Shown here: positions 1,102-20,386 of the stretch, piece after piece
How the letters are laid out: each line of letters begins with the position of its first letter
How positions within the stretch are numbered: the stretch's first letter is position 1
DNA from: Oscillatoriaceae cyanobacterium
GTDB taxonomy: Bacteria; Cyanobacteriota; Sericytochromatia; S15B-MN24; JAQBPE01
Length of the DNA: 35,693 nt
NCBI GenBank assembly: GCA_036703175.1
Contig: DATNPP010000195.1
Coordinates: 1-35,693, forward strand
Direction: 5' to 3'
Position numbers and translations under genes: made by a program
The notes under the pieces: generated by a model
What the model was told of the DNA's origin: nothing
The model's input: the letters and a program-made list of their open reading frames with translations, nothing else
Database searches by the model: none

Positions 1102-1136
1102 AAAAAAAGGCCCCACGAGGCATGCCTCGTGGGGCC
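1102..1136 (-). terminator. Rho-independent terminator ending the minus-strand glycan operon
   Basis: Perfect 12-bp stem GGCCCCACGAGG / CCTCGTGGGGCC (1109-1120 and 1125-1136) with loop CATG. It is followed on the minus strand by T7 (A-run 1102-1108) and lies 15 nt after the methyltransferase stop. Confidence 0.85.
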
Positions 1137-1150
1137 CGCAAAAGCGCGGA

Positions 1151-1975
1151 TCAGGAAACCTTGTCCGCCACCACGGTCCAGCTCATGCCGTTCGTGTGCG
1201 TGAGGCGAACGTTCGTGAGAGGCAAGCCCGCGATCAACTGCTCGACCTCGTCCTTGCGCCAGTAGTGGGCAATGCTCGGAATCAGCTGATCGAAGACGAT
1301 CGCCTCGAGGTGCCGGAACGTCATCTGCCGCAGCAATTGCAGATAGGGCTTCCGATGCGGCAGCTGCAGATATCCGCGCAGCACGACGGTCATGGCCCGC
1401 GCGAGCCAGCGCGTGGCAGGCGGCGGCAGCTTGTTCGTGACGTAGCGGCGCAGCGGATCGATCACGGCCAGATAGCGCTCGTTGCCCTCGTGGCCGTAGA
1501 GCCACAGGATCAGCGACCCACCCGGCTTGAGGGCCGTCACCATGCGCTCGACGGCTTGGCGCGGATCCGCGAGGTGGTGAATGACGCCAATTGAAAAGGC
1601 GATGTCCAGCTCGTTTTGAAGATCGAGCTCGTAGACCGACTGAAAGCGCACCTCCGCGTTCTCGAAGGACGCGAGGTTCGTTTTGGCCACCGCGACCGTG
1701 CGCTCGTCGTAATCGATCGCCAGGCAGCGCGACGCGCCGGCCTTCAACGGCCAGTAGCTGTTGCGCCCCACGCCGCAACCGACGTCGAGGAAGCTCTTGC
1801 CCGCGAAGAACTCCGGCGTCAGCGGCTGAATCCAGCGCCGGAACTGCTCTTCGTGCATCGGCAGAATCTCGCGGTACCAGTCCCACTCGTTGCCGAACTC
1901 GTGTTGCGTGCCGGTGGCGATCGTCTGGGGAGCGACGGCGGTCGTGCTCAAGGGCGCATCTCCTTGCTGGGGCAT
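1151..1975 (-). CDS. Class I SAM-dependent methyltransferase
   Basis: 274-aa ORF with SAM motif [13 protein letters not shown] and the downstream acidic/hydrophobic motifs (LAIDYD, IGVIHHL, LKPGG). Confidence 0.8.
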
Positions 1976-2011
1976 GTCTACTCTACTTTCTCGACAGGTC
2001 CTGCGCGAACT

Positions 2012-3010
2012 TTACGCCAAGCTTCGGGCGTCACGCGTCGCGCGGAACCATTCCACGAACGCGGCAATGCCGGCCTCGAACGGCGTATCCGGCGCATAGC
2101 CCAACAGTGCGCGGCTCTTGGTCGTGTCCGCGTAGGTGCGCGGCACGTCGCCCGGCTGCATCGGCTGGCGATCGAGCATGGCCTTCTGGCCGAGCGCCGA
2201 CTCGAGCGTCCAGACGAGCTGGGCGAGCGAGATGGTGCGCGAGTTACCCAGATTGAAGACCTCGTAAGGCGTCTTCTCGTAGGCCAGCGCGGCCCGCACG
2301 CCGGCGATGATGTCCGCGACGAAGGTGTAGTCGCGCTCGGTCGAGCCGTCGCCGTAGAAAGGCAGCGGCTTGCCCTCGGCAATCAGGCGCGCGAACTTGT
2401 GAATCGCGAGATCCGGCCGCTGGCGCGGGCCGTAGACGGTGAAGAAACGCAAACACACGCAGCGCAGGCCGTAAAGGTGCGCGTAGGTGTGGCAGAACAG
2501 CTCGCCGGCCGCCTTGGTGGCCGCGTAGGGGCTGATCGGCGCGGGAATCGGATCGGCCTCGGCAAAAGGTACCTTCTCGTTGATGCCGTAGACGCTCGAG
2601 CTCGATCCGAAGACGAACTTGTCGACGCCATGCCGCTTGCAGGCCTCGAGCAGATGGAGCGTCGCCGTGATGTTGGTGGACTCGTAGAGGTAGGGCTCGC
2701 TCAACGAGGGCCGCACCCCGGCGCGGGCCGCGAGGTGCACGACGCGGCCGAAGCCGTGCTCGACGAACAGGCGCTCGATGAGGTCGGCGTCGCGAATGTC
2801 CCCTTCGATCAGGGTGTAGTGCGGGTGCTGGACATGCGTCCGCACGTTCTCCCGCTTGATCGCCGGATCGTAAAAATCGTTGAAATCGTCGACGACGACC
2901 ACCCGCTCGCCGTCCGCGAGCAGGCTATCGACCAGATGGCTGCCGATGAATCCGGCGCCGCCGGTCACGAGAATCGGCCCGTTGGCCTTCGGAATGCGCT
3001 GTTCGAGCAT
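2012..3010 (-). CDS. NAD-dependent extended-SDR sugar-nucleotide epimerase (UDP-glucuronate 4-epimerase-like)
   Basis: ORF trimmed to the ATG at 3010 (AAGGAG upstream). Motifs: [11 protein letters not shown] Rossmann, catalytic YAATK, and [13 protein letters not shown] as I recall it from the uronate 4-epimerase subgroup. The substrate assignment is inference. Confidence 0.75.
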
Positions 3011-3071
3011 CGGATCTCCTTGGACTCCCAATATACCCGTCATCCGGCCGCGATTGGAGCGGCCGGCGACC

Positions 3072-4994
3072 TCAGGCACGGGCGGCTTGCAACGGCCGGG
3101 TCAGATATGCCTCGCGCCAGAACTCGAACATCAACATGGTCCAGAGCAGCTTGCGGTGGTCGTGCGTGCCCGCCAGGTGCTCCCGGACGAGGCGTTCCAC
3201 CTCGCGCACCTCGAAGATGCCCGCCTCGCGCAGCCGCTCGGGCGCGAAAGCATCGAGCATGGTCGAACGCAGCTCGCCTTTCAGCCACTTCGCCACGGGA
3301 ATGCCGAAGCCCTTCTTGGGGCGCTTGAGGATCGCTTCGGGCAAGTAACGCGCCGCGACCTCCTTGAGGGCGTGCTTGGTGCGCTTGCCCTTGAGCTTGT
3401 AGTGGCTCGGCAAGCCGGCGATGTATTCCACGAGCGTGTGATCGAGAAAGGGCGCGCGCGCTTCGAGGCTCGTCGCCATCGAGGCCCGATCGACCTTCAC
3501 GAGGATGTCTTCCGGCAGATAGGTGACGGCGTCGAGGTGCAGATAGCGCGCGATCGCATCCCATTCGGCGCTCGCGCCCCAAACCGCGCGGTGCTGGTCG
3601 TAGAGGTCGTCCTCGGCGATCGCCGCGCGCGCCTCCGCCGTCAACAGCGATCGCTGCGCGTCCGGCGAGAACGAGCCGAGCCATTGCAGATGCCGCTCCA
3701 GATGGGGGCGATCGAGCCCGTTGGCGAAGCGCTTGAGCTTGAAGTCGAGGCTCAAATTGTTCGGATTGACCGGCAGTCGGTTGGCGATCGCCCTTCCCGC
3801 ACCGCCGACGAGCGCCCGAAGCGGCCCCGGCAGCGCGTCGTAGACGCCCGCCAGGCTTTGCGCCTGATACGTCGGATAGCCCGCGAAGAGCTCATCGCCG
3901 CCGTCGCCGCCCAGGGCCACCGTGACGTGCCGGCGCGCGAACGCCGAGAGCAGATACGTCGGCATCACCGAGGCGTCGCCGAAGGGCTCGTCCAGCAGCT
4001 CGGTCAGCCGCGGCACCAGTTCGAGCAAGCGCGCGGGCGAGAGGATCTCCTCGTGATGCTCGGCGCCGATGTGCCGCGCGACCAATCGCGCGTGCGCCGA
4101 CTCGTCGAACGAGGGATCCTCGAAGCCGATCGCGAAGGTCTGCAGCTTGCCGGGCACCTCGCGCGCCGCGAGCGCCGCGATGGTGCTCGAATCGATGCCG
4201 CCGGACAGAAAGACGCCGAGGGGCACCTCCGAGAGCAAGCGCATACGCACGGCCTCGGCGAGGCGTGTCTCGAGCTCGGCGATCGCCTCGCGCTCGTCTT
4301 GCACGGGCTCGCGGCGCGTGAGGTCGAGCCGCCAGTATGGCGAAACGCGCCACGATCCGTTCTCAGCCACCAGCAGATGCGCCGGCGGCAGCTTGTGCAC
4401 GCCCTCGAGAATCGCGTGCGGCGCCGGCACGTACTCGAACTGCAGATAGCGGGCGAGCGCCGGCAGCGAGAGGCGCCGGCTCAAGGCCGGATGCGCGAGC
4501 AGGCACTTGAGCTCGGAACCCCAGAGCAGCTCCTGGCCCACCTGGGCGTAATAAAGAGGCTTCTCGCCCAGGCGATCGCGCGTCAGAATCAGCTTGCGAC
4601 GCCGTTCGTCCCAGAGGGCGATCGCGAACATGCCGTTGAGATGCTGTACGAAGTCCTCGCCGTGGTCCTCGTACAGGTGCACGATCACCTCGGTGTCCGA
4701 GCCGGTGGCGAAGCGATGGCCGCGCGCCTCGAGCCGCTCGCGGAGCGCGGGATAGTTGTAGATCTCGCCGTTGAAGACCACCCAGACCGTGCCGTCCTCA
4801 TTGGCGATCGGCTGCTTGCCGCCGCCCACGTCGATGATCGAGAGCCGGCGCATGCCGAGACCGACTGGCCCGTCGAGGCGCAGCCCCTCGTCGTCCGGCC
4901 CGCGATGGACCATGGCCCGGCACATCGCGCTCAGCGTCGCGAGCTCACCGCGCGGCGCGTTATCGAGCGAGAAGAACCCGGTGATGCCGCACAC
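3072..4994 (-). CDS. Asparagine synthase (glutamine-hydrolysing) family amidotransferase
   Basis: GTG start gives MCGITGFF, with Cys2 as the Ntn nucleophile. PP-loop FLSGGIDSS is present. 640 aa. The start lies 3 nt after the stop of the upstream GT2. Confidence 0.9.
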
Positions 4995-4997
4995 GGG

Positions 4998-5996
4998 CTA
5001 GTCTTCCACGTTCAGCACGTTGCGCAGGGTGTAGGTCGCCTTGCCCTGGGATTCGTGGTAGGTGCGCATGATCATCTCGGCGAGCAGGCCCATCAGCAGC
5101 AGTTGCACGCCCAGCACGACGAGCGTCACGGTCAACAGCGGCAGGGGCGTCTGAATGAAGTCCGCGTAGTGCATGAGCTTGAGGTAGACGGCGTACGAGC
5201 CTGACAAAAAGGCCAGCAGGAACGCGAAGAAGCCCGCGCCGCCGAAGACGTAGATCGGCTTGGTGGCGTAGGTGCCCATGAACTTCACGGTGACGAGGTC
5301 GAGCATCACCTTGAAGACACGATTGAGGCCGTACTTGCTCTTGCCGTGAATGCGCGGCAGGTGGTTCACGGGCAGCTCGGTGACGCGCGCGCCGGCCCAG
5401 CTCGCGTAGATCGGAATGAAGCGGTGCATCTCGCCGTAGAGCTGCACGTCTTTGAGCACCTCGCGGCGGTAAGCCTTGAGCGAGCAGCCGTAGTCGTGCA
5501 GGTGCACGCCGCTGATCTTCGAGATCAATCGATTGGCGACCATGCTCGGCAGCTTACGCGTGACGGCCTTGTCCTGGCGCTGCTTGCGCCAGCCGGAGAC
5601 GACGTCGTAGCCTTCTTCGAGCTTGGCGATCAAGGCGGCGATGTCGGCCGGATCGTTCTGCAGATCGGCGTCCATCGGAATCAGGATCTCGCCGCGTGCG
5701 AAGCGAATGCCTGCGGACATGGCGGCCGTCTGGCCGTAGTTGCGGCGAAAACGGATCACCTTGCAGCGCGGATCCGCGGCGGCAATCTCGGACAGCACTT
5801 TGTAACTGGCGTCGGTCGAGCCATCGTCGACGAAGATGACCTCGTAGGTGCGCCCGAGCCCGGCCATCGCGGCCGTGAGCTTCTCGTGCAGCGGGCGGAG
5901 GTTGTCTTCCTCGTTGTAGACGGGCAGGAAGACCGAAATCTGTGGATGGCCGATGATCTCACCGACCGGAGGCGCGGGAATGGACCGCTCGAGCAT
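4998..5996 (-). CDS. Polyprenyl-phosphate glycosyltransferase (GT2, GtrB/ArnC/DPM1-like)
   Basis: Trimmed to the ATG at 5996 (AAGGAG upstream). Motifs: ISVFLPVYNEEDNL, FVDDGSTDAS, MDADLQNDP. Two C-terminal TM helices (IYVFGGAGFFAFLLAFLSG; LLTVTLVVLGVQLLLMGLLAEMI) are characteristic of lipid-carrier GT2 enzymes. Confidence 0.8.
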   Translation of the reverse strand: MLERSIPAPPVGEIIGHPQISVFLPVYNEEDNLRPLHEKLTAAMAGLGRTYEVIFVDDGSTDASYKVLSEIAAADPRCKVIRFRRNYGQTAAMSAGIRFARGEILIPMDADLQNDPADIAALIAKLEEGYDVVSGWRKQRQDKAVTRKLPSMVANRLISKISGVHLHDYGCSLKAYRREVLKDVQLYGEMHRFIPIYASWAGARVTELPVNHLPRIHGKSKYGLNRVFKVMLDLVTVKFMGTYATKPIYVFGGAGFFAFLLAFLSGSYAVYLKLMHYADFIQTPLPLLTVTLVVLGVQLLLMGLLAEMIMRTYHESQGKATYTLRNVLNVED

Positions 5997-6248
5997 GGGG
6001 CGCTCCTTCTCAATCAGGACTGCGAATGCACTTTTCCCGGCGACGGGAGATTCAAAATGCGCTACTCGCTTGGTCATGATTTTTTATCGGAACCCATCGA
6101 TAGAAACTCAAGCGCGCCCGGTCCAAAGGAGGCGATTCTCCCGGCCCCAGGCGCGCGCGACAAGGCGCTGAAATGCTACCCCCGGCGTCAAGGAGTAACC
6201 GATTGCCGGTCTCCGAGCAGAAGCCGGGAGTCTCTTGCCGACCGCCGC

Positions 6249-7061
6249 TTACATCGTTGAACTCGCGCCGGAGGCCGGCATCGCGGGGTCTGGCACCGTG
6301 AGGAGGGCCGCTTTCACGTAATCGAAGGTCATTCGCGCCCAAATATTGGGGGCAACGTCCTTGGGCGGATTGGTGCCGATCCAGAACTTCATCGGCCGGC
6401 GATCGGAGTGGAAAGTGCCGAGCTCAGTCTCGTCGGCAATGGCACGGTAGTTCCCGGAGCCGTCGTCTTCAAGGCGGATGCGGTGCGTGGCACCAATGAC
6501 AGCGCCATTCGGAATGACGTAGGATCGCGTCCCGGACTCGAGGTTGAACACCAACATCACGTTCGAACCGCTCGTGGCCAGCGCCATGAAGGGCTGCGTC
6601 ACGGGCGCTTCGTTGGGTTGCGGTGCAGGCAAATAATCAAGACAGAACGCGGGGATGAGACCTTGGCTCATACGCGTGTACTTGGTCTCGAAGAAGAATG
6701 GGCCATCCTGGGGAATGACGTTCGACTTGGTGACGATGTAAGGACAGTTTCGCACGTTGGGCGGGGTTACCACATCCAGCAAGCCGTCGTGGACGCTCAC
6801 GACCCCGCTCTGTGAGAAGACGGCCCATTGCGTGGAATCAAGGCTGGAGCCATCAAACTCGTTATCGAAGCCCGCCGCGCTCGGCTCCTGCGTGCTGGTG
6901 GCATCGCCTGCGGAGGCACTCGGTGAGGGCGATGTCGCGCCGATTAGCGGCTGGTCTGACGATTGGGGCAGATCAGGCGTGCCGCTGGTGCAGGCGGCGA
7001 GGGACACGAAAAGGAGCAAGGCCCCCCCCATGACGTGACCACGAAGCTGGATTTGTTTCAC
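6249..7061 (-). CDS. Lipoprotein with putative ConA-like lectin/glucanase (LamG-like) domain
   Basis: GTG at 7061 follows GAGAGGAAA and gives MKQIQLRGHVMGGALLLFVSLAAC (lipobox LAAC). A Ser/Pro-rich linker follows. FDNEFDGSSLDSTQW resembles the start of ConA-like/GH16-like domains. Confidence 0.6.
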   Translation of the reverse strand: MKQIQLRGHVMGGALLLFVSLAACTSGTPDLPQSSDQPLIGATSPSPSASAGDATSTQEPSAAGFDNEFDGSSLDSTQWAVFSQSGVVSVHDGLLDVVTPPNVRNCPYIVTKSNVIPQDGPFFFETKYTRMSQGLIPAFCLDYLPAPQPNEAPVTQPFMALATSGSNVMLVFNLESGTRSYVIPNGAVIGATHRIRLEDDGSGNYRAIADETELGTFHSDRRPMKFWIGTNPPKDVAPNIWARMTFDYVKAALLTVPDPAMPASGASSTM

Positions 7062-7316
7062 GAAGATTTCCTCTCGATGCTGGATTGTCCGAAGTGTAGC
7101 TGTTGACAACCCAATCGGCTAAGACCATCGTCACACCGATTGCCTCGTCCACGTATCACCGGAAGGTCGCCTCGTCTCCATCGCGCACCGAGCAGGAGCC
7201 TGCGCGAGTCCGGGCGCCTGATTCCCCCAGATTGCTTTTTCCCAGGGCGCCGCCCGCCGAAACCGCGGCAACTGCACGCTTCAATCGAAGCGCGTGCCAC
7301 GGACTCCGACAACAAC

Positions 7317-8873
7317 CTAGTGCGACGTCCGCACGAAAAAATAGTCGAGCTTCAGGGCCGGCTCGCTCGCCACCCGCGCATCCAGATCATCGAGCGGCTT
7401 GGGCTTCGGCGTGCGTCCGATTCGAATGTAAGGATCGTCCAGGCCCTTATAGGTGAACCCGTCGTCCATTTCCGCGAGGATGTACTTCAAGCGCCGGCTC
7501 TCGGGGTGGTCCAGTCTTACTTGCCGCCGAATACGCAGATAGTCGTCCAAGTAGCGATCGCAGAATTGAGCGGTTGCCTTCTCAAGTCCGAGGGCTGTCG
7601 ATCCCTCGCGCGGATAGAGCATATTCAGCTCCCCGGAAACCACGAAATCATCGACCACCACGCGATCGGGGTCGCGTCGCAGGTCGTGCAACAAGGCGGG
7701 CGTGAGCGGAAGCTCCGCGCACACCGCCTGGTTCGCACGAAAGGACAACACCACGTCGCGCAAATAGAGCACCATCGCGAATGCGAAGATCACTTGCCAT
7801 ACCCTGGCAGGCAGCTTCGTCGCCGTGACCAACATCAGGGCGAACAACACGCCGCCGGCATAGCGCTCGAAATTGATGGGCTGTGCGATATAGCCGGCCA
7901 AAATCTGGTGGTTGCTGACGGCGAGGGGGGCCAGCGCGAGCGCGAGGCCCCAAAATCGCCAACGGGCATCGGAACGGCGGCATAGCGCCATGTAGACGGT
8001 GAGCATGAGCGCGCCCGTCAACGAGAACAACGGCAGGTGCGTCGGCACGAGAAAGAGGTGCGTCGTCGCCCCGACGAAAAAAGCGCCGTACGCCCAAGAA
8101 AGCGCCCCGAGCACCGCGTAGGCGAACAATAAGGGGCCGGCGGTCGCCCAGCGCTCACCCCAAGGCCAGCAGCTGCGCGTATGGCAAGCCAACAACACGA
8201 AACCGGCCGGCAGCGCGATGAAAGGATACATGAAGGGCAACACGAAATAGACCGGCCAATAGCGCCGGATGCGCACGGCCAGGCCAATTGCAAGCGCCAA
8301 CATCAGCAACGAGAACTGGGGCTCGGGCGATCGCCAGAACGGCGAGGACGTCATGTCGGGCACGTTGAACCAAAACCGCAGGCCATGTTGCATCGTCCAA
8401 GCCCAAAAGCGGTGCACGAGGGGGTTCGAGCTGAGCGCCAACTCGGGCAGCACGAGCAGCGCCAAGGCACCGCCGTTCGCCTGCTCGACACTCCAGTTTA
8501 GCCCCCGCAATACCGCCCGCGCCGCGAGCACGAAGGCCAGCGGCATCGTGAGGTCCAAGAGCAGGTTGATCTGACCGCCCGCGAGCCCGGCCTGGTGTAG
8601 CAGCGTAACGAGGTATTGCCCGGGCCGCGCGATGCCCTGGATGACCCGCGAGTAGTCGTATTGAAGATAGGCGGTTTCGTCAAATCCGTTGAGATAATAG
8701 ATGTGCCCGCCCGTCATGACGAACTGCGTCAGCGGAAAAGCCACGGTCGCTGCCAACAAGCCCGCCAACACCAACCAAAACGCGCGCGAACTCACTGAGA
8801 AACCTGGCCGCAGCGAACTTGTCGGACGATCCTCCACCTTTTCCCTCCGCGACTCGGTCTCCAACCTAGCCAT
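7317..8873 (-). CDS. Polytopic integral membrane protein, possible GT-C-fold glycosyltransferase
   Basis: 518-aa ORF with many hydrophobic segments over the first ~400 aa. The first predicted loop carries YLNGFDETAY. The soluble C-terminal ~120 aa is charged. No family was recognised with certainty. Confidence 0.55.
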   Translation of the reverse strand: MARLETESRREKVEDRPTSSLRPGFSVSSRAFWLVLAGLLAATVAFPLTQFVMTGGHIYYLNGFDETAYLQYDYSRVIQGIARPGQYLVTLLHQAGLAGGQINLLLDLTMPLAFVLAARAVLRGLNWSVEQANGGALALLVLPELALSSNPLVHRFWAWTMQHGLRFWFNVPDMTSSPFWRSPEPQFSLLMLALAIGLAVRIRRYWPVYFVLPFMYPFIALPAGFVLLACHTRSCWPWGERWATAGPLLFAYAVLGALSWAYGAFFVGATTHLFLVPTHLPLFSLTGALMLTVYMALCRRSDARWRFWGLALALAPLAVSNHQILAGYIAQPINFERYAGGVLFALMLVTATKLPARVWQVIFAFAMVLYLRDVVLSFRANQAVCAELPLTPALLHDLRRDPDRVVVDDFVVSGELNMLYPREGSTALGLEKATAQFCDRYLDDYLRIRRQVRLDHPESRRLKYILAEMDDGFTYKGLDDPYIRIGRTPKPKPLDDLDARVASEPALKLDYFFVRTSH

Positions 8874-8958
8874 TTTGGCCGCGTCGACTGCCTTCCTATA
8901 CCCCCCAGCGCCGTGCCCCCACCGTTATACTGCGAGGCCCCGCGGGTACCTCACAGGC

Positions 8959-11301
8959 ATGTCCGGCATCCCCCTCGCACCACGGCCCAGCTGGCGCCGC
9001 CTGGCCCCTTGGCTTGGAGCGCTCGGCCTGCTCTTCACCATGCTCGGCGTGGTGTTCGGACCGGGGCTCGTCGGCACGGCCGGAATCGACGGCGCCTCAT
9101 TGTTGCCTTACGAGGATGCGCTATACCAGCCCAAGGTGCCGTGCACCTCGCCGATTCTGAATCAAGACACGACGCCCGAGACTTACAACCAGCCATGGGA
9201 CACGCTCGCCTGGCGAGAGATCAGCGCCGGAGAATGGCCGCTGTGGGATCCGAACAACGGCTTTGGAATGCCGCTTCTGGGCAGCGGACAATCCGCGCCG
9301 TTCAATCCCCTCAAGTTGTTGCTGGCGGGCGGCGCCGTGGGGGTGCCGGAGGCATGGTTCTTGGTCTCCCGGCTCGCGGTCGCGGGCATCGGCGCCTTGT
9401 TGCTCGCGAGAGCCCTCGGCCTCGGCGCGATCGCCAGCACCCTCGTCGCCGTCGCATTCATGGGCAACGGCAACTTCGCCTACCACTTTCACTACAGTGA
9501 CGTCCATGCGCTCGTGATGCTGCCTTGGCTACTCTTGGCGGGTGAGCGAATGCTGGACGTACCGAATGCGCGGAATGCGACGATCTTCGGAGCCACAATC
9601 GCCCTAACCGGGGCGCTGGGGCATCCCGAGGCGGCCCTGTATGCGGCCGCGGGCGCCGTCGTTTCGGTGGCGTTCGGAGCGATCGCCCGGCGCCGGCAAG
9701 GCTCGCGCGTGTGGGCCTGCCTTGGGGTAACCTGCCTGCTGGCAATCGGTCTTTCCTGTGTGACGCTGCTGCCCTTCCTCGAGCTGGTCCACAACGGAAA
9801 TGGCTACATGTTCGACCCCCAGCAGGCCAACCCGGCGCGCTGGTACGGCTTCCGCGCCAAGCTGGCCTTAGTGGGGCTGCACCTGCTCTCGCCCACGGCC
9901 CGGCCGGACGCCTTCACGTTCAACGCCTTCGCGGGCATCGTGCCGCTCGGTCTCGCACCCCTCGGCTGGCGCTCACGCGCCTTGCGGCCGGCCCTATCGC
10001 TCGTCGCCGTGTCCGTCACGCTCTTGATTTTGGGCTACCCCGGCCGTTACGTGCCCCTCGTCACCCCGGCGCCCGACGCAGGCTACGTGCCCGCTCTTAT
10101 CGCGATGGCCGTGGCCCTGCTGGCCGGCGGGGGGCTTCAACGCCTCGAATCGAAGCCTTGGGGGAGGGAGGTGATTCTCGCCGGAATCGGCGCCGGGACC
10201 CTGACGCTCGCGTCCGGATGGCTTGCGCACACGGCGGCCGTCCGGCACCTCGGAGACTTTCGAGCCGCCGCCGCCGCCGCGCTGATCGCCACGCTGACCC
10301 TATTGCTCGTGCGTGCGCCACGGGCCCGTGCGTTGACGATGCTGGGCGTGACCGCGCTCGAGCTCGGTTGGTGCCTGCACACCGCCAACCCGCCGCAGCC
10401 GCCTTTCGCCTACCCGAGCACCCCGATTCTGCGCTACCTGGCCGACCAGCCGCGCCCCTTCCGGGTCACCGGCGGGCTTTCCGCGCTATTGCCCAACACC
10501 AACGTCGTCTACGGCATCGATTCGCTCGACGCTGAGGACGCTTTTCACAGCGGGCGCTACGCCGCGTTCATGAGCGCCCTTCTGGGCAAGTCGGTTCCCG
10601 CCAGCAACTTGTTCGCCCTCTATGTGCCGACGCCCGGCGAGCGGCCGCTCCCATTCAGCGCCCCCCTGCTCGATCTGGCGAATGTGCGGTACGTGCTCGA
10701 TGCGCCGGACCGGTACCACCTGGATCACCTGCGGCCATGGCTCACGCACGATCCCGTTGTGATGCGTCAAGGCAGCGTGACGCTGTACCGAAACCCCGAT
10801 GTGATGCCGCGCGCCTTTGTGGCGTACTCCGCAGACTACACGCTCCAAGGCGTCGTCGGCGCTGAGCGCCGCCTCGCAGCGACCCCTTCGCGTTGGCTCG
10901 ACCACGCCCTCATCGAGACGCCGGGCGGCCTCGCGCCGCGTGGCTACGCCAACACTGCCGCCCCGATCACCCCCGCTCGCGTCATCCGGCACGGCACGCA
11001 ATCCGTCAGCGTGGAAGCGACATTGCCACGGCCCGGCTGGTTGATCCTTACAGACGCCTTCTATCCCGGCTGGCAAGCACGGGTCGATGGCGCCCCCGCG
11101 ACCATCTATCCGGCCGACGTGGCCTTTCGAGGCGTCTACCTTCCAGCCGGACGACACCGCGTAGACTTCCGCTACGCGCCCAGGAGCTTCCGCCTCGGCC
11201 TGTGGGTGAGCTTGGCGTTCGCCGCGTTCGCGGCGCTTCTGCTGGTGCGGCTGGACCGCGTGCGCTTTGGCCTGCCGTTAGCGCCAACTTCGCGCGGGTA
11301 A
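8959..11301 (+). CDS. YfhO-family membrane protein (putative GT-C glycosyltransferase), copy 1
   Basis: ORF 8701.. trimmed to the ATG at 8959 (MSGIPLAPRPSWRRLAPWLGALGLLF). It is polytopic. The C-terminal YPGWQARVDGAPATIYPADVAFRGVYLPAGRHRVDFRYAP block matches my recollection of the YfhO family C-terminus. Confidence 0.65.
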   Translation: MSGIPLAPRPSWRRLAPWLGALGLLFTMLGVVFGPGLVGTAGIDGASLLPYEDALYQPKVPCTSPILNQDTTPETYNQPWDTLAWREISAGEWPLWDPNNGFGMPLLGSGQSAPFNPLKLLLAGGAVGVPEAWFLVSRLAVAGIGALLLARALGLGAIASTLVAVAFMGNGNFAYHFHYSDVHALVMLPWLLLAGERMLDVPNARNATIFGATIALTGALGHPEAALYAAAGAVVSVAFGAIARRRQGSRVWACLGVTCLLAIGLSCVTLLPFLELVHNGNGYMFDPQQANPARWYGFRAKLALVGLHLLSPTARPDAFTFNAFAGIVPLGLAPLGWRSRALRPALSLVAVSVTLLILGYPGRYVPLVTPAPDAGYVPALIAMAVALLAGGGLQRLESKPWGREVILAGIGAGTLTLASGWLAHTAAVRHLGDFRAAAAAALIATLTLLLVRAPRARALTMLGVTALELGWCLHTANPPQPPFAYPSTPILRYLADQPRPFRVTGGLSALLPNTNVVYGIDSLDAEDAFHSGRYAAFMSALLGKSVPASNLFALYVPTPGERPLPFSAPLLDLANVRYVLDAPDRYHLDHLRPWLTHDPVVMRQGSVTLYRNPDVMPRAFVAYSADYTLQGVVGAERRLAATPSRWLDHALIETPGGLAPRGYANTAAPITPARVIRHGTQSVSVEATLPRPGWLILTDAFYPGWQARVDGAPATIYPADVAFRGVYLPAGRHRVDFRYAPRSFRLGLWVSLAFAAFAALLLVRLDRVRFGLPLAPTSRG

Positions 11302-11311
11302 ATCTGAGGGT

Positions 11312-13636
11312 ATGACTCTCTCGTCGGGCGTCGCCCCCGCCGCTGTTCGCTCCCGTGGCTGGCTCTGGGCATTCCTCTTCGTCACCACGCTGCTGGTCGG
11401 GGTCTATGCCCAGGGCCTCGTCGGCGCCAAGAGTATCGACGGCGCGGGGCTGCTGCCTTACATGGACACGCTCTATGGACCGTTGCACAACTGTCCCTCG
11501 CGTCTCGCATTCAAAGACCCGACGCCCGCGGTATACAACCAGCCTTGGGACAGCGTCGCCTGGCGCCAGTTGCGCGCGGGGCACTTTCCGCTGTGGCAGC
11601 CCCATAACGGCTTCGGCGTTCCCTTGCTTGCGAGCGGCCAGGCTGCTCCGTTCAATCCGCTCAAATTGATCCTCGGCTTTGGCGCCACCGGCATCGCCGA
11701 GGCCTGGTTTCTGCTGCTACGACTCGAATTGGGCGCCTTGGGCATGTTGCTTTTGGCACGACGTTTCCGCTGGAAAGCGAGCACAGGCGTGCTCGTCGCG
11801 ACCGGCTTCATCTTCAGCGGCAACTTCATCTACCACGTCCAGTACTCGGATACGAGCACCTTCGTGGCCCTGCCCTGGCTGCTTTTGGCCGGTGAGGCCC
11901 TGCTCGACACCCCCAGCGCCCGCAACACCGTGCTGTTCGGGGCCGCCATCGGACTCGCCGGCTTGCTCGGGCACCCGGAACCCGCCGTGCTGGCGGCCGC
12001 TGGCACCGTACTCGCCGTGTTGCTCGGCGTGAGGCAAGCGCAGGCGCCTTGGCGCACCCTCCTCGCCTGTGTCGGAGCGTGCGGGCTCGGGATGGCTTTC
12101 GACGCCTTCACCCTGTTGCCCTTCTTCGAGTTGGTGCGCCACAGTGACAGCTACCTCTACGACGTCGCCCACCGCGTCGCCGTCACCGCGCAAGACACCT
12201 TCAAGGCCAAGTTCGTATTGCTCACCGTACACCTGTTCTCGCCCGACGCGCGGCCGGAGTTCATGAACTTCAACGACTATGCCGGCGCGGCGCCTTTGGC
12301 GCTCGCGCCGTGGGGATTCTCGGATCGGCCCGCGCGGCGCCTCGCGATCGCCCTCGGCAGTGTGGCGGCCCTCGTCCTGCTGACTTGCCCGCCTGGCCAG
12401 CATTTGAGCATCTTGCCCGTTTCGCCGAACTCGAACTATGTCTCGGCCCTCCTGGTGACGGCCCTCGTGCTGCTCGCCGGTGCCGGGTTGGAGCGTCTGC
12501 GCGCCACCCCGCAGCAAGCGCCGGCTTGCGTCGTCTTCGGGGGCGCCCTGACGCTTGTCGCCGTTGCGCTGCAGTGGCAGGCCCAACGCATGCACCTCGG
12601 AGATTTCCGGGTTTTCCTCGTGACGGCCCCCGCCTGCGCCGTCGCGATCGCCGCCCTGCGCTGGAAGCCGCGTGCGGCCACCGCCAGTCTCCTGCTCGTC
12701 TCCAGCCTCGGCCTCGCCTGGCAAGCCAACGCGGCGACGCCTGCCTTGCCGCGCTTCGATTACGCCAATACGCCCATCCTGAACTACCTCGAAGCCCACG
12801 CGGGTGACGCCCGCGTCACCGGAGGTCTGCGCTGCTTGCTGCCCGACACCAACCTCATGCACGGGCTGGACTCGCTCGACAGCTACGAAGTGTTTCACCC
12901 CAAGCGCTACGTCGCCTACATGCGGAAGCTGCTCGGGCGTACGCCACACGAAATGGGCTGGCTCGGCGTCGACGGCCCGTTCGACCCCACCTTGCTCGAT
13001 CTCGCCGGCGTGCGCTACCTCGTGCTCGCGAGCCCGGACCTGAACCTCGACGGTGCGATCGACCGCTTCCGCGCCGAAGTGCGAGAGTTGAGAGGCTATC
13101 CGCTCCTCATGCGGCAGGGGCGCGCGATGCTCTTCGAAAACCCGCATGCAATGCCGCGCGCCTTCACCGTCTCGGCCGCCGACTACGTGAGCGACTTCAA
13201 CGCCGCCGTCCTTCGCCTCGACGCAACGCCCGCGCGCTACAGAGCGCGCGCGCTCATCGAATCCCCCGGGGGCGCTCCGCCGAACTGGCGAGACGATGCT
13301 GCCTCCCCGCGCCCCGTGCGCATCCGCCGTGGCGACGACGGCTCGGTCGACGCCGCCGTCACCTTGCAATGCCCTGCCTGGTTGGTGCTCAGCGACCTCG
13401 CTTACCCCGGCTGGCGCGCTGAGGTCGATGGCGTCCCTGCGGCGATCCGTCCCGCCGACGTCGCCTTTCGCGCCGTCTATCTCGGCGCCGGCGCGCACCG
13501 CGTGCGGTTCTACTATCGACCGACCAGCTTCGCGCTCGGCGGACTGATCTCGTTGCTCGCGTGCGGACTGGCGGTAATCTTGCTGATCGCGAAGCCGCTG
13601 CTCGCCCTCGGGCGAGTCTCCGAACCATCCCTGTGA
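11312..13636 (+). CDS. YfhO-family membrane protein (putative GT-C glycosyltransferase), copy 2
   Basis: Starts 10 nt after copy 1 (GAGGG RBS). It is collinear with copy 1 (NQPWD.AWR, PLW.P.NGFG.PLL.SGQ.APFNPLKL, YPGWRAEVDGVPAAIRPADVAFRAVYLGAGAHRVRFYYRP). Confidence 0.65.
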   Translation: MTLSSGVAPAAVRSRGWLWAFLFVTTLLVGVYAQGLVGAKSIDGAGLLPYMDTLYGPLHNCPSRLAFKDPTPAVYNQPWDSVAWRQLRAGHFPLWQPHNGFGVPLLASGQAAPFNPLKLILGFGATGIAEAWFLLLRLELGALGMLLLARRFRWKASTGVLVATGFIFSGNFIYHVQYSDTSTFVALPWLLLAGEALLDTPSARNTVLFGAAIGLAGLLGHPEPAVLAAAGTVLAVLLGVRQAQAPWRTLLACVGACGLGMAFDAFTLLPFFELVRHSDSYLYDVAHRVAVTAQDTFKAKFVLLTVHLFSPDARPEFMNFNDYAGAAPLALAPWGFSDRPARRLAIALGSVAALVLLTCPPGQHLSILPVSPNSNYVSALLVTALVLLAGAGLERLRATPQQAPACVVFGGALTLVAVALQWQAQRMHLGDFRVFLVTAPACAVAIAALRWKPRAATASLLLVSSLGLAWQANAATPALPRFDYANTPILNYLEAHAGDARVTGGLRCLLPDTNLMHGLDSLDSYEVFHPKRYVAYMRKLLGRTPHEMGWLGVDGPFDPTLLDLAGVRYLVLASPDLNLDGAIDRFRAEVRELRGYPLLMRQGRAMLFENPHAMPRAFTVSAADYVSDFNAAVLRLDATPARYRARALIESPGGAPPNWRDDAASPRPVRIRRGDDGSVDAAVTLQCPAWLVLSDLAYPGWRAEVDGVPAAIRPADVAFRAVYLGAGAHRVRFYYRPTSFALGGLISLLACGLAVILLIAKPLLALGRVSEPSL

Positions 13637-13699
13637 GCCAGAAACCGCCCTTCGATTGCGATTGAGGCGGCAAACGAACGGGTAAACGAAACGAGCACG

Positions 13700-15322
13700 A
13701 TGGCCGACTCCGATACCTCCAACACGCCCAAACGCCACCTCGCCAGCGAGTTTGCCCTGCTGGTGATCTTGGGCGTCTGGCTCGTTCCGTTCGTGTTTTC
13801 CACCTACTTCCGCCCGGACGAGTTCACCCTGCTGAGCGGCGCGTTGCGCCAGCTCCATGGTCAGGTCGTCTACCGGGACTACTTCGAATTCACCGCGCCC
13901 CTGGTCACATGGCTACCTGCGGCGCTCTATTGGCTGGCAGGTCCCAGCTTGTTGGAGGCGCGCTTATTACAGGCCGCGTGCCTGTGCCTGGCCGGCTGGC
14001 AACTCTACGGCCTCGCGCGGCGCGTCGGCTGTGGCCCCTGGAGCGCGACGATACCCGGGCTCGCACTCGGCGTGGTGTTCTATCCCATCTGGCCCGGCTA
14101 CAGCCACCATTGGATCACGCTGGTCTTTCTATTCGGCGCCTTGCACGCCCTGTTTCGCGCGCTGGAGAGCCGCGGCGCGCGGTGGTGGGGGCTCGCCGGC
14201 GCCTGCGGCGCCCTCGATCTCTTGACGATGCAGTCGGATGGCGTGGCCCTGTTGCTCTTTCTGGCGGCCACGCCGCTCGCTGACTGGGCGATGGGCGCGC
14301 GTTCGCTGCGTTCCGCGCTCATGCAGACGCTTGCGGTGCTGACCGGCGCCCTGCCGCCGCTCCTTGCGTGCGCCGCGTACCTCGCGGCGCACCATGCGCT
14401 GCGCGCCGCCTACGTGAACGTCTTCGTCTGGCCGCTCACGCACTACAAAACGCCCGGCAACGTCAACGACATCAAGTGGGCCACCATGCTGCCGGGCGAG
14501 ATCGCGACCAACACCCCGCATTGGGTCAACCTGCCGACTTGGTACATCTCGCTGTTCCACGCCGTCACACTCTACGCCCTGCTGCCGGGCGTCGCGGCGA
14601 TCGCGGTTGCCTGGGGTCTCGGCCTCGTTTATCGGCGCCTCCGCACGCGTGTCCCGTGGCGCGCCGACGAGCGGCGTCTGGCACTCGTCGGCGCGCTGGC
14701 AACGGGGCTATCTCTCGTGATGCTCAAGGGCAGCGGCGACACCGTGCACACGGCCCAGTACGCGATCTTGCCGCTCCTGTTCGTGACGGCGATCGCCGCG
14801 CGCAGCCTCGACGTATGGACCGCGCCACAGTTCGCGCTCATCAAGCGCCTACCGCTATTCGCGTTGCTCACCTTCGTGGCCTCGGGCGCCTGGCTTTTCG
14901 TGTGCCAAGCACGACAAGCACCGAAGCTTTGGCTTTCGTTCGGCAATCCAGACGCCAAACTGGCCCACAGCCCGATCTTCGAGTACCTCATGGCCCATAC
15001 CGACGCCCACGACACCATCGCCGCGATGCCCTTCGGCGGCCTCTACAACTTCTACACGCGCCCGGCCGCCACGCGCTACACCTTGATGGGCCCGCTCACC
15101 GAGCACTACTACACGCTCGCCGAGGTACTCGACTTCGAGCAGGAAATCGAACGGAACCGGCCCAAATTCGTCGTGATCGACTTCCCCTACCGCACGATTC
15201 GCGACCCCGCCCTGTACCTGCCCAAACCCCTGCCGGGCTACCACTTCGTCGCTTGCTTGCCGGACGCCGACGCGGAGAATCGCTTCCCCGTCAGCATCTT
15301 CGAGCGAAACGACGCACGCTGA
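13700..15322 (+). CDS. Polytopic membrane protein, ArnT/PMT_2-like GT-C glycosyltransferase candidate
   Basis: 540 aa with about 10 or more hydrophobic segments. The first loop carries YFRPDEFTLL and YRDYFEFTAPL (GT-C-like acidic loop). The C-terminal domain is soluble. Confidence 0.5.
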   Translation: MADSDTSNTPKRHLASEFALLVILGVWLVPFVFSTYFRPDEFTLLSGALRQLHGQVVYRDYFEFTAPLVTWLPAALYWLAGPSLLEARLLQAACLCLAGWQLYGLARRVGCGPWSATIPGLALGVVFYPIWPGYSHHWITLVFLFGALHALFRALESRGARWWGLAGACGALDLLTMQSDGVALLLFLAATPLADWAMGARSLRSALMQTLAVLTGALPPLLACAAYLAAHHALRAAYVNVFVWPLTHYKTPGNVNDIKWATMLPGEIATNTPHWVNLPTWYISLFHAVTLYALLPGVAAIAVAWGLGLVYRRLRTRVPWRADERRLALVGALATGLSLVMLKGSGDTVHTAQYAILPLLFVTAIAARSLDVWTAPQFALIKRLPLFALLTFVASGAWLFVCQARQAPKLWLSFGNPDAKLAHSPIFEYLMAHTDAHDTIAAMPFGGLYNFYTRPAATRYTLMGPLTEHYYTLAEVLDFEQEIERNRPKFVVIDFPYRTIRDPALYLPKPLPGYHFVACLPDADAENRFPVSIFERNDAR

Positions 15323-17012: not shown

Positions 17013-17897
17013 ATGAGCATTCTCGTCAACAAAAACACCAAGCTGCTGGTCCAGGGCATCACCGGCCGCGAGGGCGCGTTCCACACCGCCAAGATGATCG
17101 AGGTGGGCACCCAGGTGGTCGCCGGCGTCACGCCCGGCAAGGGCGGCCAGACCGACCCGAACGGCGTGCCGATTTTCAACACCGTCGCCGAGGCCGTCGC
17201 CAAGACCGGCGCCAACGCGAGCATCATCTTCGTGCCGCCGCCGTTTGCGGCCGACGCCATGCTCGAGGCCTTCGCGGCCGAGATTCCGCTGGTCGTCTGC
17301 ATCACCGAGGGCGTGCCCGTGCACGACATGATCAAGGTCTACGACCGCATGCTCGTGAGCAAGAGCCGTCTGATCGGCCCCAACTGCCCGGGCCTGATCA
17401 CCCCCGGCGAGGCCAAGCTGGGCATCATGCCGGCGCACATCTTCAAGGACGGCAACGTCGGCATGATCAGCCGCTCCGGCACGCTGACCTACGAGCTCGT
17501 GGCCGAGCTGTCGAGCCGCAACCTCGGCATCAGCACCTGCGTGGGCATCGGCGGCGACCCGATCATCGGCACCACGTTCCTCGACTGCCTCAAGCTGTTC
17601 GAGGCCGATCCCGAGACCGAGATCGTCGTGATGGCCGGTGAGATCGGCGGCGCGATGGAAGAGATCGCGGCCGAGTACATCAAGACCATGAAGACCCCCG
17701 TGATCGGCTTCATCTCGGGCCGCACGGCGCCTCCGGGCAAGCGCATGGGCCACGCCGGCGCGATCGTCAGCGGCGGCAAGGGCACGGCCGAGGCCAAGGT
17801 GAAGGCCCTCACCGAGGCGGGTGTGCCGGTGCCGTTGCGCATGCACGAGGTGATCGACGAGGTCGAGAAGAAGCTCAAGTCGCTCGCCAAGGTGTAA
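17013..17897 (+). CDS. sucD: Succinate--CoA ligase alpha subunit
   Basis: AAGGAG RBS. Motifs: [30 protein letters not shown], and [14 protein letters not shown] (phosphohistidine loop). Confidence 0.95.
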
Positions 17898-17908
17898 ACC
17901 GAAGCAGC

Positions 17909-17940
17909 AAGCCGGTCGAGGCAACTCGGCCGGCTTTTTT
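17909..17940 (+). terminator. Rho-independent terminator after sucD
   Basis: GCCGGTCGAG-GCAA-CTCGGCCGGC stem (one G:U pair) followed by TTTTTT. Confidence 0.8.
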
Positions 17941-17964
17941 CATGCGTGCGGTGTCAAGGGGCTC

Positions 17965-17993
17965 TTTACAAGCTGACAGGGGTTGGTTAAGAT
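17965..17993 (+). promoter_or_regulatory. Sigma70-like promoter TTTACA-N17-TAAGAT
   Basis: The hexamers are spaced by exactly 17 nt in an AT-richer spacer, 48 nt upstream of the ATG at 18041. Confidence 0.45.
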
Positions 17994-18040
17994 AAGATTA
18001 GGAGTTGGATAACCAGAGCTTAATTTACATAGGAGGTCTC

Positions 18041-18733
18041 ATGACCCGGATGCACCGCGGAATCGCGCTCGCTCTCGTCGCCACCATGCTCGCAGGCTGC
18101 GGCCAGGCGGCCTTCGTTCCTCCGGCGCAGCCGGGCGTCACGGGCATGGCGGGCATGGCCCTCCGTTCGAGCAGCGCCACGGCGCTCGCGACGTCCTTCG
18201 CGAAATCGGTCGAGAACCAGGCGCCGGATCGCGTGACCCGCAACGGGGCGATAGTGACGATCGAGAGCGGCGATTCGACGACGCGCTACGACTTCACGGC
18301 CACGCCGCGCACGCAACAGGTCACGATCACGGCCGACGGCGTGTCGGTCCAGGTCTCCTACGCCACGCTCACGGCCCAGGCGACCTCCTCGCAAATCAAG
18401 TTCGCGCCGCTCGTGTTGCTGCCGATCGCCCTTGACGTGGCCTTCGCCGGCGCCAAGGCCTATGCGGTGTACTGGTTCACGCACCGCCACGACTTCAACA
18501 AGCACGACGCGATCCAGGCCGTCGTGACGGGCATGGGCCAGGCGCTGGTCGGCTATCTGCCGATGGGCTTCCTGCTGAAGTGGCTGGTGCCGATCGTCGT
18601 GAAGTTCGTGATGAACACCAGCGCCTCGGACTACACGCACGCGCTGCACGACCTCATGTCCCAGCTCGACGACATCGTGCACGCCATCAAGCACATGCTC
18701 GCCGGCGATCCGGCGCCGCAAGTGTCGTACTAA
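18041..18733 (+). CDS. Hypothetical lipoprotein with hydrophobic C-terminal segments
   Basis: AGGAGG sits 5 nt before the ATG at 18041. MTRMHRGIALALVATMLAGC has lipobox LAGC. The C-terminal third has hydrophobic stretches (FAPLVLLPIALDVAFAGA; LVGYLPMGFLLKWLVPIVV). Confidence 0.6.
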   Translation: MTRMHRGIALALVATMLAGCGQAAFVPPAQPGVTGMAGMALRSSSATALATSFAKSVENQAPDRVTRNGAIVTIESGDSTTRYDFTATPRTQQVTITADGVSVQVSYATLTAQATSSQIKFAPLVLLPIALDVAFAGAKAYAVYWFTHRHDFNKHDAIQAVVTGMGQALVGYLPMGFLLKWLVPIVVKFVMNTSASDYTHALHDLMSQLDDIVHAIKHMLAGDPAPQVSY

Positions 18734-18744
18734 GCCTCGTTCTC

Positions 18745-18773
18745 GCCCCGCCCTCGGCGGGGCTCTTTTTTTT
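18745..18773 (+). terminator. Rho-independent terminator
   Basis: GCCCCGCC / GGCGGGGC stem followed by TCTTTTTTTTT. Confidence 0.8.
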
Positions 18774-18901
18774 GCTCATCGTGGAACCGGACGGGCGAGG
18801 CGCGCGTCAAAGAGACCATCGGAACCTCCGTTACGGGCGCTTGCTTTTGGGCACATGACACGAGCCGTCGCCCGCGCTCACACCGCCGTCAGGAGCCCGC
18901 C

Positions 18902-20386
<1,485 letters not shown>

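Follow-up and report, generated by a model that had tools for sequence, protein, structure and literature searches.

Does the locus described here build one sugar donor on a polyprenyl phosphate carrier, and is this donor passed to the several membrane proteins encoded beside it? The question is raised by nine genes (Table 1) in contig DATNPP010000195.1, and the window analysed is this complete contig of 35,693 bp (NCBI label 'MAG TPA: Oscillatoriaceae cyanobacterium', locus tags V6D47_060xx; 65% G+C). All nine genes listed in an earlier reading of the letters (the original prediction) were borne out by the listing of open reading frames (ORFs), with a third-position G+C content of 0.74-0.88, typical of genuine genes. 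In order of transcription, the minus strand encodes a 518-residue polytopic protein, a lipoprotein, a family 2 glycosyltransferase (GT2), an amidotransferase of the AsnB superfamily, a short-chain dehydrogenase/reductase (SDR) and a methyltransferase; two YfhO-like proteins and a PMT_2-like protein are encoded on the plus strand. For eight of the nine proteins a family or fold was established, together with the coupling of the genes and the co-conservation of a core set. The locus is read here as a "three-component" extracytoplasmic glycosylation locus of the Arn, Gtr, Rgt or Pgf kind, in which a sugar carried on undecaprenyl phosphate (Und-P) would be transferred in the periplasm by GT-C-type glycosyltransferases, and we regard this reading as moderately probable.

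The donor module and its conservation

Within the donor module, the GT2 scores 128.8 bits against Glycos_transf_2 (PF00535; cut-off 23.3) and aligns end to end with the solved ArnC structures 9hwj, 9bhc and 8vxh (about 195 bits, query residues 18-328 of 332 against 8-314 of 322), as well as over its full length with the Synechocystis GtrB protein sll0501 (5ekp; 145 bits, query residues 19-327). Two hydrophobic helices at the C-terminus of the sequence are included in the ArnC/GtrB alignment, and the protein is therefore placed in the polyprenyl-phosphate monosaccharide synthase subgroup, as had been proposed for this GT2 with its C-terminal pair of transmembrane (TM) helices. Among the equivalog models, the ArnC model NF007986 is matched at 220.6 bits (residues 46-357 against 7-314 of 316; cut-off 529, not reached) and the PgfS model NF047588 at 156 bits (cut-off 500, not reached). 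The true start of the GT2 is probably M28, near position 5996, as in the ortholog from the L006 locus described below.

The genes from the GT2 onwards are spaced 3 nt apart (GT2 and amidotransferase), overlap by 8 nt and are again 36 nt apart, as expected of a single operon. The amidotransferase starts with fMet-Cys-Gly-Ile (Cys2) and contains the PP-loop SGGIDSS, and thus looks catalytically competent. TIGR03108 is its best family (612.8 bits over the full length, under the cut-off of 816.9). In this family, WbpS, WbqG and P. gingivalis PGN_1234 form uronamides from sugar uronic acids, and PGN_1234 is required for the formation of a sugar uronamide (PMC7468200).

The SDR, whose true start is probably M13 or M24, has as its best matches in the Protein Data Bank (PDB) the entry 5u4q (280 bits), the B. 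cereus UDP-glucuronate (UDP-GlcA) 4-epimerase BcUGAepi (6zl6, 210 bits) and MoeE5 (6kv9, 176 bits). The depositors of 5u4q name it a dTDP-glucose 4,6-dehydratase, and a literature search on 5U4Q did not settle its identity. The sequence contains the Rossmann motif GxxGxxG (GGAGFIGS) and a catalytic Y..AATK aligned with Y149/K153 of BcUGAepi, and an S-S-S segment aligns with T126-S127-S128 of the carboxylate-binding network in that enzyme. A GPRQRPD segment, identical to BcUGAepi around T178 and R185, holds the equivalent of Arg185, which in BcUGAepi holds the carboxylate of UDP-galacturonate (UDP-GalA) (PMC12338863). Being closest to UDP-GlcA 4-epimerases and retaining Arg185 and the Ser/Thr residues, the SDR is predicted to interconvert UDP-GlcA and UDP-GalA, in keeping with the uronate-4-epimerase-like character first ascribed to it. 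For the methyltransferase, the NCBIfam scan returned no specific equivalog.

The conservation of the module was assessed in 80 loci (L007-L086) from GTDB representative genomes, each anchored on a GT2 53-70% identical to that of the window; adjacency was counted in the 64 loci with at least 2.5 kb of downstream sequence. In 35 of the 64, the gene immediately downstream of the GT2 homolog is an AsnB homolog; in 19, the GT2 adjoins a same-strand polytopic ORF of at least 430 residues; and 51 have at least one of these two neighbours. Eight of ten such polytopic neighbours that were scanned are PMT_2 proteins. Methyltransferase genes accompany the GT2-AsnB pair in many related loci, and in 14 loci the GT2 and AsnB occur together with a methyltransferase and an SDR of 50% or higher identity. 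For example, the Pyrinomonadaceae locus L029 has the order methyltransferase, SDR (66%), PMT_2, methyltransferase, SDR, methyltransferase, (Uma2), GT2 (66%) and AsnB (54%). Both the GT2-AsnB pair and the set of SDR, PMT_2, methyltransferase, GT2 and AsnB occur in several phyla. Culturable carriers of the module include Azospirillum oryzae (L052) and Fundidesulfovibrio agrisoli (L039), as well as Chloracidobacterium and Pyrinomonas. Judged by these counts, the donor module and its association with GT-C enzymes form a widespread cassette, for which no characterising paper was found.

The closest relatives of the locus share more of its genes. In the metagenome contig L006, one strand encodes a glyoxalase, a PMT_2 protein (78%) and a YfhO protein (58%), and the divergent strand an AT3 acyltransferase, the lipoprotein (62%) and the GT2 (93%). 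L090 contains the GT2 (71%), AsnB (66%), the lipoprotein (40%), YfhO (45%), a PMT_2-like protein (38%) and four further lipoprotein genes. Tandem YfhO pairs occur in L087 and L088 beside GT2 genes, an LtaS-like sulfatase-domain gene, a sulfotransferase gene and a PMT_2 gene. When hidden Markov models (HMMs) of the YfhO clade and of the 518-residue family were run against all ORFs of the 80 GT2-anchored loci, a single additional YfhO protein was found (L053); because of this result, these exact families are considered not to travel with the GT2 outside close relatives. The GT2, AsnB, lipoprotein, YfhO and PMT_2-like genes, which recur jointly in L090 and partly in L006, thus constitute a co-conserved core set, in line with the neighbourhood conservation that the original prediction had made a test of its proposal. 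Additions that vary between relatives are the 518-residue gene and the second copy of YfhO; such variation is common in surface-decoration loci.

The best GTDB homologs of the GT2 (64-70%), SDR (60-69%) and AsnB (47-55%) belong to Acidobacteriota (Pyrinomonadaceae, Chloracidobacterium) and not to cyanobacteria, the SDRs adjoining related GT2 genes in Acidobacteria being 60-69% identical to that of the window. Judged by sequence similarity, either the donor module would have been exchanged between phyla or the Oscillatoriaceae label is doubtful.

From the GT2, SDR and amidotransferase assignments together, galacturonate or galacturonamide on Und-P is the best inference for the donor. In the proposed scheme, the SDR would convert UDP-GlcA, made elsewhere in the genome, to UDP-GalA, and the ArnC/GtrB-type GT2 would move the uronate onto undecaprenyl (polyprenyl) phosphate. 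The carboxylate would be turned into a carboxamide by the WbpS-like amidotransferase, whose translation is coupled to that of the GT2; its substrate would be the nucleotide sugar or, as with ArnD and NaxD, the sugar already linked to the lipid. The methyltransferase may supply further decoration. Three or four membrane enzymes would then put the carried sugar onto cell-surface targets. The lipoprotein would serve as a periplasmic glycan-binding or glycan-trimming accessory, or as an acceptor through its linker. In this scheme the identity of the sugar, the stage of its amidation and the acceptors are what we infer.

A more far-reaching version of the scheme, which we consider unlikely, would make the GT2-WbpS-like pair (found in at least eight phyla) an undescribed pathway. 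The uronate would be loaded on Und-P and amidated on the carrier, and the resulting neutral polyprenyl-phosphate-uronamide would be used by several periplasmic transferases to change the charge of the envelope; one of these transferases, the 518-residue protein, would found a new GT-C-like family, and the lipoprotein, with its ConA/PL7-type fold, would be a dedicated periplasmic partner. A search of a limited literature set returned no report of a lipid-carrier uronamide pathway.

Table 1. Position and basis of assignment of the features of the divergent locus
Feature	Position	Strand	Basis
Intrinsic terminator ending the minus-strand operon	1108-1137	-	13-bp stem, 10 G-C pairs, 4-nt loop, T7 tail
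Class I S-adenosylmethionine-dependent methyltransferase	1151-1975	-	Methyltransf_11 62 bits, Methyltransf_25 55 bits
SDR, UDP-glucuronate 4-epimerase-like	2012-3079	-	Epimerase 207 bits
Glutamine-dependent amidotransferase, AsnB superfamily, WbpS-like	3072-4994	-	Asn_synthase 359 bits, GATase_7 163 bits
ArnC/GtrB-type GT2, predicted polyprenyl-phosphate sugar synthase	4998-6077	-	Glycos_transf_2 and ArnC/GtrB alignments
Lipoprotein with S/P/T-rich linker and ConA-like beta-jelly-roll domain	6249-7109	-	Lipobox LAAC, predicted fold
518-aa polytopic protein, unclassified family, candidate GT-C-type transferase	7317-8873	-	Fold matches, acidic motif, context
Divergent intergenic region	8874-8958	.	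Between ATG 8873 (-, 518-aa gene) and ATG 8959 (+, YfhO-like 1)
YfhO-family membrane protein 1 (780 aa)	8959-11301	+	PF09586 46.5 bits (threshold 28.5)
YfhO-family membrane protein 2 (774 aa), tandem paralog	11312-13636	+	PF09586 38.3 bits (threshold 28.5)
PMT_2-family (ArnT/PMT-like) GT-C membrane protein, 540 aa	13700-15322	+	PF13231 30.3 bits (threshold 26.1; marginal)

The candidate membrane transferases

The plus strand was expected to encode two tandem YfhO-like proteins and one ArnT/PMT-like protein, and the corresponding Pfam families were indeed matched above their gathering scores, twice and once, respectively. The two YfhO-like proteins are 46% identical to each other. In both, the match to PF09586 is confined to the last 70 or so residues (profile positions about 758-835 of 835); the N-terminal 646 residues alone gave no PF09586 match, and a relaxed Pfam scan (E<=10) of both N-terminal membrane domains found nothing meaningful. 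PF09586 is present in nearly all of the 120 listed homologs of YfhO-like 1. The membrane domain contains at least 10 hydrophobic segments, and D70 of YfhO-like 1, located in the first loop, is near-invariant among 24 homologs. YfhO-like 1 is the copy kept in relatives, and is the counterpart of the lone YfhO protein of L006. Among the homologs, YfhO domains are fused to a GT2 (P0037, Planctomycetes, 1101 aa), to Wzx-type flippases (P0056 and P0070, Chloroflexi, about 1360 aa) and to a methyltransferase (P0059, 1100 aa). Between the methyltransferase domain of P0059 and the methyltransferase of the window, the similarity is no more than that generic to class I enzymes, and it was not relied on.

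The match of the PMT_2-like protein to its family is marginal and covers residues 66-210. Directly after the first TM helix (TM1) it carries the pair D40-E41, which is invariant in the L006 and L090 orthologs, and a conserved acidic residue or pair is located just past TM1 in all four polytopic proteins of the locus. GT-C enzymes carry catalytic acidic residues at this position. No usable result came from searching the PDB with the sequences of the PMT_2-like protein and YfhO-like 1. Thus, of the four GT-C-like proteins that had been proposed, the two YfhO-like proteins and the PMT_2-like protein are supported at the level of family, and for the 518-residue protein the assignment is one of interpretation.

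The 518-residue protein has no match in Pfam (including a relaxed scan at E<=10) or in NCBIfam, and 46 distant members of its family likewise contain no Pfam domain, three chance-level matches excepted. A word-indexed search found only 10 relatives; when 1.84 billion cluster representatives were searched with a profile, 315 were matched at E<=1e-3. Comparison of 54 members, the most distant at 16% identity, shows full conservation of E66, P183 and N321 and near-invariance of N62, D65, Y69, R181 and Q186, and the resulting N-x-x-D-E-x-x-Y-L motif is located directly after TM1. The AlphaFold (AF2) model (pLDDT 84, pTM 0.85) contains about 10 membrane helices, with short helices after TM1. In a Foldseek comparison of this model with the PDB, AglB (3wak) ranked first (E 0.013, probability 0.94), ALG12 (9s6t) second (probability 0.97, TM-score 0.36/0.38) and PimE (9dm5) fifth (E 0.36), all of them weak matches, followed by Pmt1/2 at rank 33 (E 2.2); no match reached E<=1e-3. 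The AglB, ALG12 and PimE matches have TM-scores of 0.25-0.38, compared to about 0.1 for the other top matches, all of which are unrelated transporters. A PDB search with the family profile was empty. HMM and profile searches therefore place the protein in no GT-C family, and the fold search ranks GT-C enzymes first, weakly (E 0.013-0.4, TM-score at most 0.38).

The genomic contexts of the 518-residue homologs are diverse. In L091 (9639-11482, GCA_036675505.1), the start of the homolog overlaps a gene for a 121-residue EamA-like (ArnE/F-like) protein with four TM helices, and the same locus holds a GtrB-type GT2 whose C-terminus has two TM helices, together with a DegT aminotransferase, WbqC, PhyH and two methyltransferases; this layout is Arn-like, with the 518-residue family in the position of ArnT. 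L001 carries two tandem copies by a methyltransferase and an AsnB gene, with a GT2 gene also present, in an exopolysaccharide locus. The homologs in L002 and L003 occur with a UbiA/DprE1/DprE2-like polyprenyl-phosphate-pentose module that includes a small SMR/EamA gene. In L002, an MBOAT gene and a SASA/SGNH gene come after a pair of lipoprotein and 518-residue genes (9140-15046), and 6 kb away (17831-20922) are genes for UbiA, a short-chain dehydrogenase, an FAD oxidase and a small SMR/EamA protein, an arrangement resembling decaprenyl-phosphate-arabinose synthesis. The homolog in L093 (3362-6109) is again trailed by an MBOAT-like gene, and those in L004 and L005 have no glycan context.

These contexts can be accommodated by another explanation, namely that the locus is a mosaic of independent envelope genes, in which the 518-residue protein would be associated with polymerase, ligase or acyl-transfer reactions and the divergent GT-C genes would use other donors. 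Such a mosaic would be consistent with the lack of detectable GT-C homology and the weak fold matches of the 518-residue family, with the MBOAT and SGNH/SASA genes near its homologs in L002/L003 and L093, with AT3 in its place in L006, with the L004/L005 homologs, and with the separate transcription of the two gene sets. We nevertheless consider it improbable: the GT-C matches stand out by TM-score, members sharing only 16-22% identity retain the Asp-Glu after TM1 without or nearly without exception, the L091 homolog is coupled to the EamA-like small membrane gene with a GtrB-type GT2 in the same locus, a polyprenyl-phosphate-pentose module occurs in L002/L003, and the five core genes recur jointly in L090. 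On the strength of the fold matches, weak as they are, the Asp-Glu after TM1 and the genomic context, the 518-residue protein is a candidate GT-C-type transferase, which is our leading reading of it and moderately probable.

Other findings weigh against the three-component reading of the locus as a whole. The GT-C partner of the donor module varies by lineage; the PMT_2 protein of L029 was tried as an ortholog of that of the window and was rejected, since BLASTP detected no similarity between them. L006 lacks the 518-residue gene, with AT3 in its place, and also the second YfhO gene, and the feeding of up to four transferases by one donor, as put forward in the original prediction, cannot be upheld as a fixed design. 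Comparison of the 518-residue family by hhalign gave probabilities of 0.6% with the YfhO family and 1.3% with a 14-member PMT_2 set. Because the GT2 scores lie far below the ArnC and PgfS equivalog cut-offs, the specific sugar is not assigned by family, and the amidotransferase is under the TIGR03108 cut-off, yet passes the generic asparagine-synthase model TIGR01536 (508.9 against 267.1 bits). The GT2, SDR and amidotransferase families fit the hexuronate donor that had been proposed; the window contains no UDP-glucose 6-dehydrogenase gene, which is present in only 2 of the 80 GT2-related loci, and no ORF for a small GtrA- or ArnEF-like flippase was recognised in it. Finally, a donor common to all of the transferases is pure conjecture on our part.

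The lipoprotein, the acceptors and known systems

The lipoprotein was expected to be ConA-like, and its model agrees with this. It contains the lipobox L-A-A-C followed by an S/P/T-rich linker, and no Pfam family was found for it, a relaxed scan (E<=10) giving no meaningful match. The core of the AlphaFold (AF2) model, made from a 4-sequence alignment, is all-beta with a pLDDT of 78-95, and Foldseek returned 456 PDB matches at E<=1e-3, the top E value being about 1e-6. PL7 alginate lyases come first among the best fold matches, ahead of calreticulin, LNS, galectin and CBM66; the top 50 listed matches (beta-sandwich lectin, lyase and carbohydrate-binding module domains) are ones we take to be ConA-like. 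PL7 alginate lyases cleave polyuronates. Q75, H184, R187, Y196, R213, K216 and Y239 are invariant in the lipoprotein family; together with a C-terminal YVKAG, they may resemble the Gln, His, Arg and Tyr residues and the motif YFKAG that mark PL7 polyuronate lyases.

Among 5.8 billion proteins, only four homologs of the lipoprotein were found, and tblastn adds two, in L090 and L002/L003. The four homologs in readable loci are each located beside a window-type GT2, a YfhO gene or a 518-residue homolog. In the L090 homolog (2523-3377), the linker comprises about 65 residues, almost all S/T/P/A, and is far longer than that of the window; four more lipoprotein genes are found there. From its modelled fold and its linker, the lipoprotein may act as a partner of lectin type, trim the glycan or serve as an acceptor.

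The last of these roles leads to the possibility that the acceptors are proteins, with Pgf/PMT-like O-glycosylation of Ser/Thr/Pro-rich disordered lipoprotein linkers and the ConA-fold lipoprotein as a dedicated substrate. In membrane-associated proteins, disordered stretches rich in Ser/Thr are glycosylated by the YfhO-family enzymes PgtC2 and PgfM1, and in the S. mutans Pgf locus the substrates are encoded adjacent to PgfS (GT2), PgfE (epimerase) and the YfhO proteins PgfM1 and PgfM2 (PMC11092751). According to the Pfam description, protein O-mannosyltransferases fall in the PMT_2 family. The linkers of the window and L090 lipoproteins, the four lipoprotein genes beside the latter and the near-restriction of the lipoprotein to these loci would also be in accord with protein acceptors. 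On the other hand, S/P/T-rich linkers are common in lipoproteins, glycosylated or not, no precedent is known for an O-linked uronate or uronamide as a protein monosaccharide, and teichoic acids and lipid A are also modified by the YfhO and PMT_2 families. Protein acceptors are therefore a possibility that we hold only tentatively.

Pgf, which the original prediction did not name, is the closest published parts list: like the locus of the window, it combines a GT2 lipid-carrier synthase, a 4-epimerase SDR, two YfhO-family enzymes and an adjacent candidate substrate. PgfS and PgfM2 are among the NCBIfam matches of the window, but at 156 against 500 bits and 20 against 1500 bits, respectively. 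Beyond the Pgf parts, the window encodes a WbpS-like amidotransferase, a methyltransferase, a PMT_2 enzyme, the 518-residue protein and the ConA-fold lipoprotein; its host is high in G+C and labelled a cyanobacterium, not a Firmicute, and its sugar is probably a uronate, not an N-acetylhexosamine. The claim that no characterised system combines such parts was thus too strong, in view of Pgf and of the GT2-AsnB loci in several phyla. At the equivalog level, the locus belongs to none of Arn, Gtr, Rgt, CsbB/YfhO and Pgf.

The Arn system (ArnA-B-C-D-T-E-F), which adds 4-amino-4-deoxy-L-arabinose (L-Ara4N) to lipid A, shares with the window an ArnC-type GT2, a PMT_2/ArnT-type transferase and a sugar derived from UDP-GlcA. 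Its sugar is edited by ArnD after loading onto the lipid carrier, which provides a model for the stage at which the amidotransferase may act. In contrast to Arn, the window lacks homologs of ArnA, ArnB, ArnD and ArnE/F, its editing enzyme is an amidotransferase instead of a deformylase, and its transferases are several and of three families. The Rhizobium system LpsL-RgtE-RgtA/B/C/D likewise has a UDP-GlcA 4-epimerase, a polyprenyl-phosphate-galacturonate GT2 and several GT-C enzymes with different acceptors, and it follows the same principle, with one donor serving many transferases; the amidotransferase, methyltransferase, YfhO-type enzymes and lectin-fold lipoprotein of the window are absent from Rgt.

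These likenesses bear on a further alternative, in which the acceptors are the lipid A or core of lipopolysaccharide (LPS), and Rgt/Arn-like addition of galacturonate or galacturonamide would alter the charge of the envelope. The nearest relative of the GT2 is ArnC, PMT_2-type partners of this GT2 subfamily are widespread in diderm phyla, and PMT_2 (PF13231) is the Pfam family that contains ArnT; the combination of a UDP-GlcA 4-epimerase, a GT2 and several GT-C enzymes also reproduces the parts list of LpsL, RgtE and RgtA-D. Amidation would neutralise the carboxylate, a change comparable to that brought about by Ara4N or galactosamine. Set against this, the window holds no lipid A or core biosynthesis genes, no role in LPS is known for YfhO-family enzymes, and the limited literature search mentioned above gave no report of a uronamide that reaches lipid A or core by way of a lipid carrier; LPS acceptors are likewise a possibility that we hold only tentatively. 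Within the three-component reading, the acceptors may be LPS or polysaccharide on the one hand, or envelope proteins rich in S/T/P on the other.

The known members of TIGR03108 act in Wzx/Wzy or A-LPS pathways, on nucleotide-linked or undecaprenyl-diphosphate-linked sugars, and are not paired with an Und-P monosaccharide synthase, unlike the AsnB homologs in the 35 loci counted above. The CsbB/GtlA-GtcA-YfhO/GtlB system of teichoic acid modification shares with the window the three-component mechanism of a GT2 and a YfhO GT-C enzyme (PMC5836110, PMC7389260); in contrast to that system, no GtcA or GtrA flippase gene was found in the window, and the labelled cyanobacterium is not expected to make teichoic acids. 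The distinctive features of the locus are the tight and widely conserved coupling of the GT2 with a WbpS-like enzyme, the presence of three transferase families, the unclassified 518-residue family and the dedicated ConA-fold lipoprotein.

Lipid-carrier monosaccharide systems such as Arn, Gtr, Rgt, Pgf and CsbB/YfhO set the charge of the envelope, susceptibility to phages and antibiotics, and the function of adhesins, and nearly all knowledge of them comes from Proteobacteria and Firmicutes. The present findings extend the known scheme to poorly studied phyla and do not overturn current understanding. The questions raised by the locus and its relatives concern the product of the widespread GT2-amidotransferase pair and whether amidation takes place on the carrier, the role of the YfhO family in diderm bacteria, and the 518-residue family as an unrecognised family of glycosyltransferases. 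The conserved pair and this unclassified family are the parts of the locus most worth pursuing.

Boundaries of the locus and neighbouring genes

Both boundary elements named in the original prediction were recovered. The minus-strand operon ends at a strong terminator, a hairpin with a T-run read from 1137 to 1108, and the divergent region, delimited by the chosen ATG starts of the 518-residue and YfhO-like 1 genes, is 85 nt long. The NCBI gene calls for this divergent pair begin slightly further in (515 and 753 aa), and a consensus scan found no sigma-70-like site within 8874-8958.

Directly past the terminator, a second GT2 gene is located at 112-1116 on the minus strand (Glycos_transf_2 99 bits, Glyco_tranf_2_3 74 bits); its product has no C-terminal TM pair. 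A homolog 36% identical to it occurs in L088, in the order GT2, GT2, 15-TM protein, sulfotransferase, YfhO, YfhO. The glycan locus may thus continue leftward, past the nine genes and past the edge of the contig.

On the same contig, 15 kb from the locus, dTDP-rhamnose-type genes encode an RmlB-like dehydratase, an RmlA nucleotidyltransferase and an RmlD-like reductase (30432-32399, plus strand; 33788-34648, minus strand). A gene for an AT3 (OafA-like) acyltransferase is located 6 kb from the locus (21669-22796, minus strand); it was tried as a displaced ortholog of the AT3 gene of L006 (4725-5987 of that contig) and rejected, the identity being only 34%. A 956-residue protein that has no Pfam match is encoded at 24730-27600 on the minus strand, between the genes for a Crp-family regulator and dnaJ, and may be the beta-barrel-like protein mentioned in the original prediction. 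In addition, a pair of DUF1800 (471 bits) and DUF1501 (139 bits) genes is found at 18902-21639 on the plus strand, after sucCD and a small lipoprotein gene.

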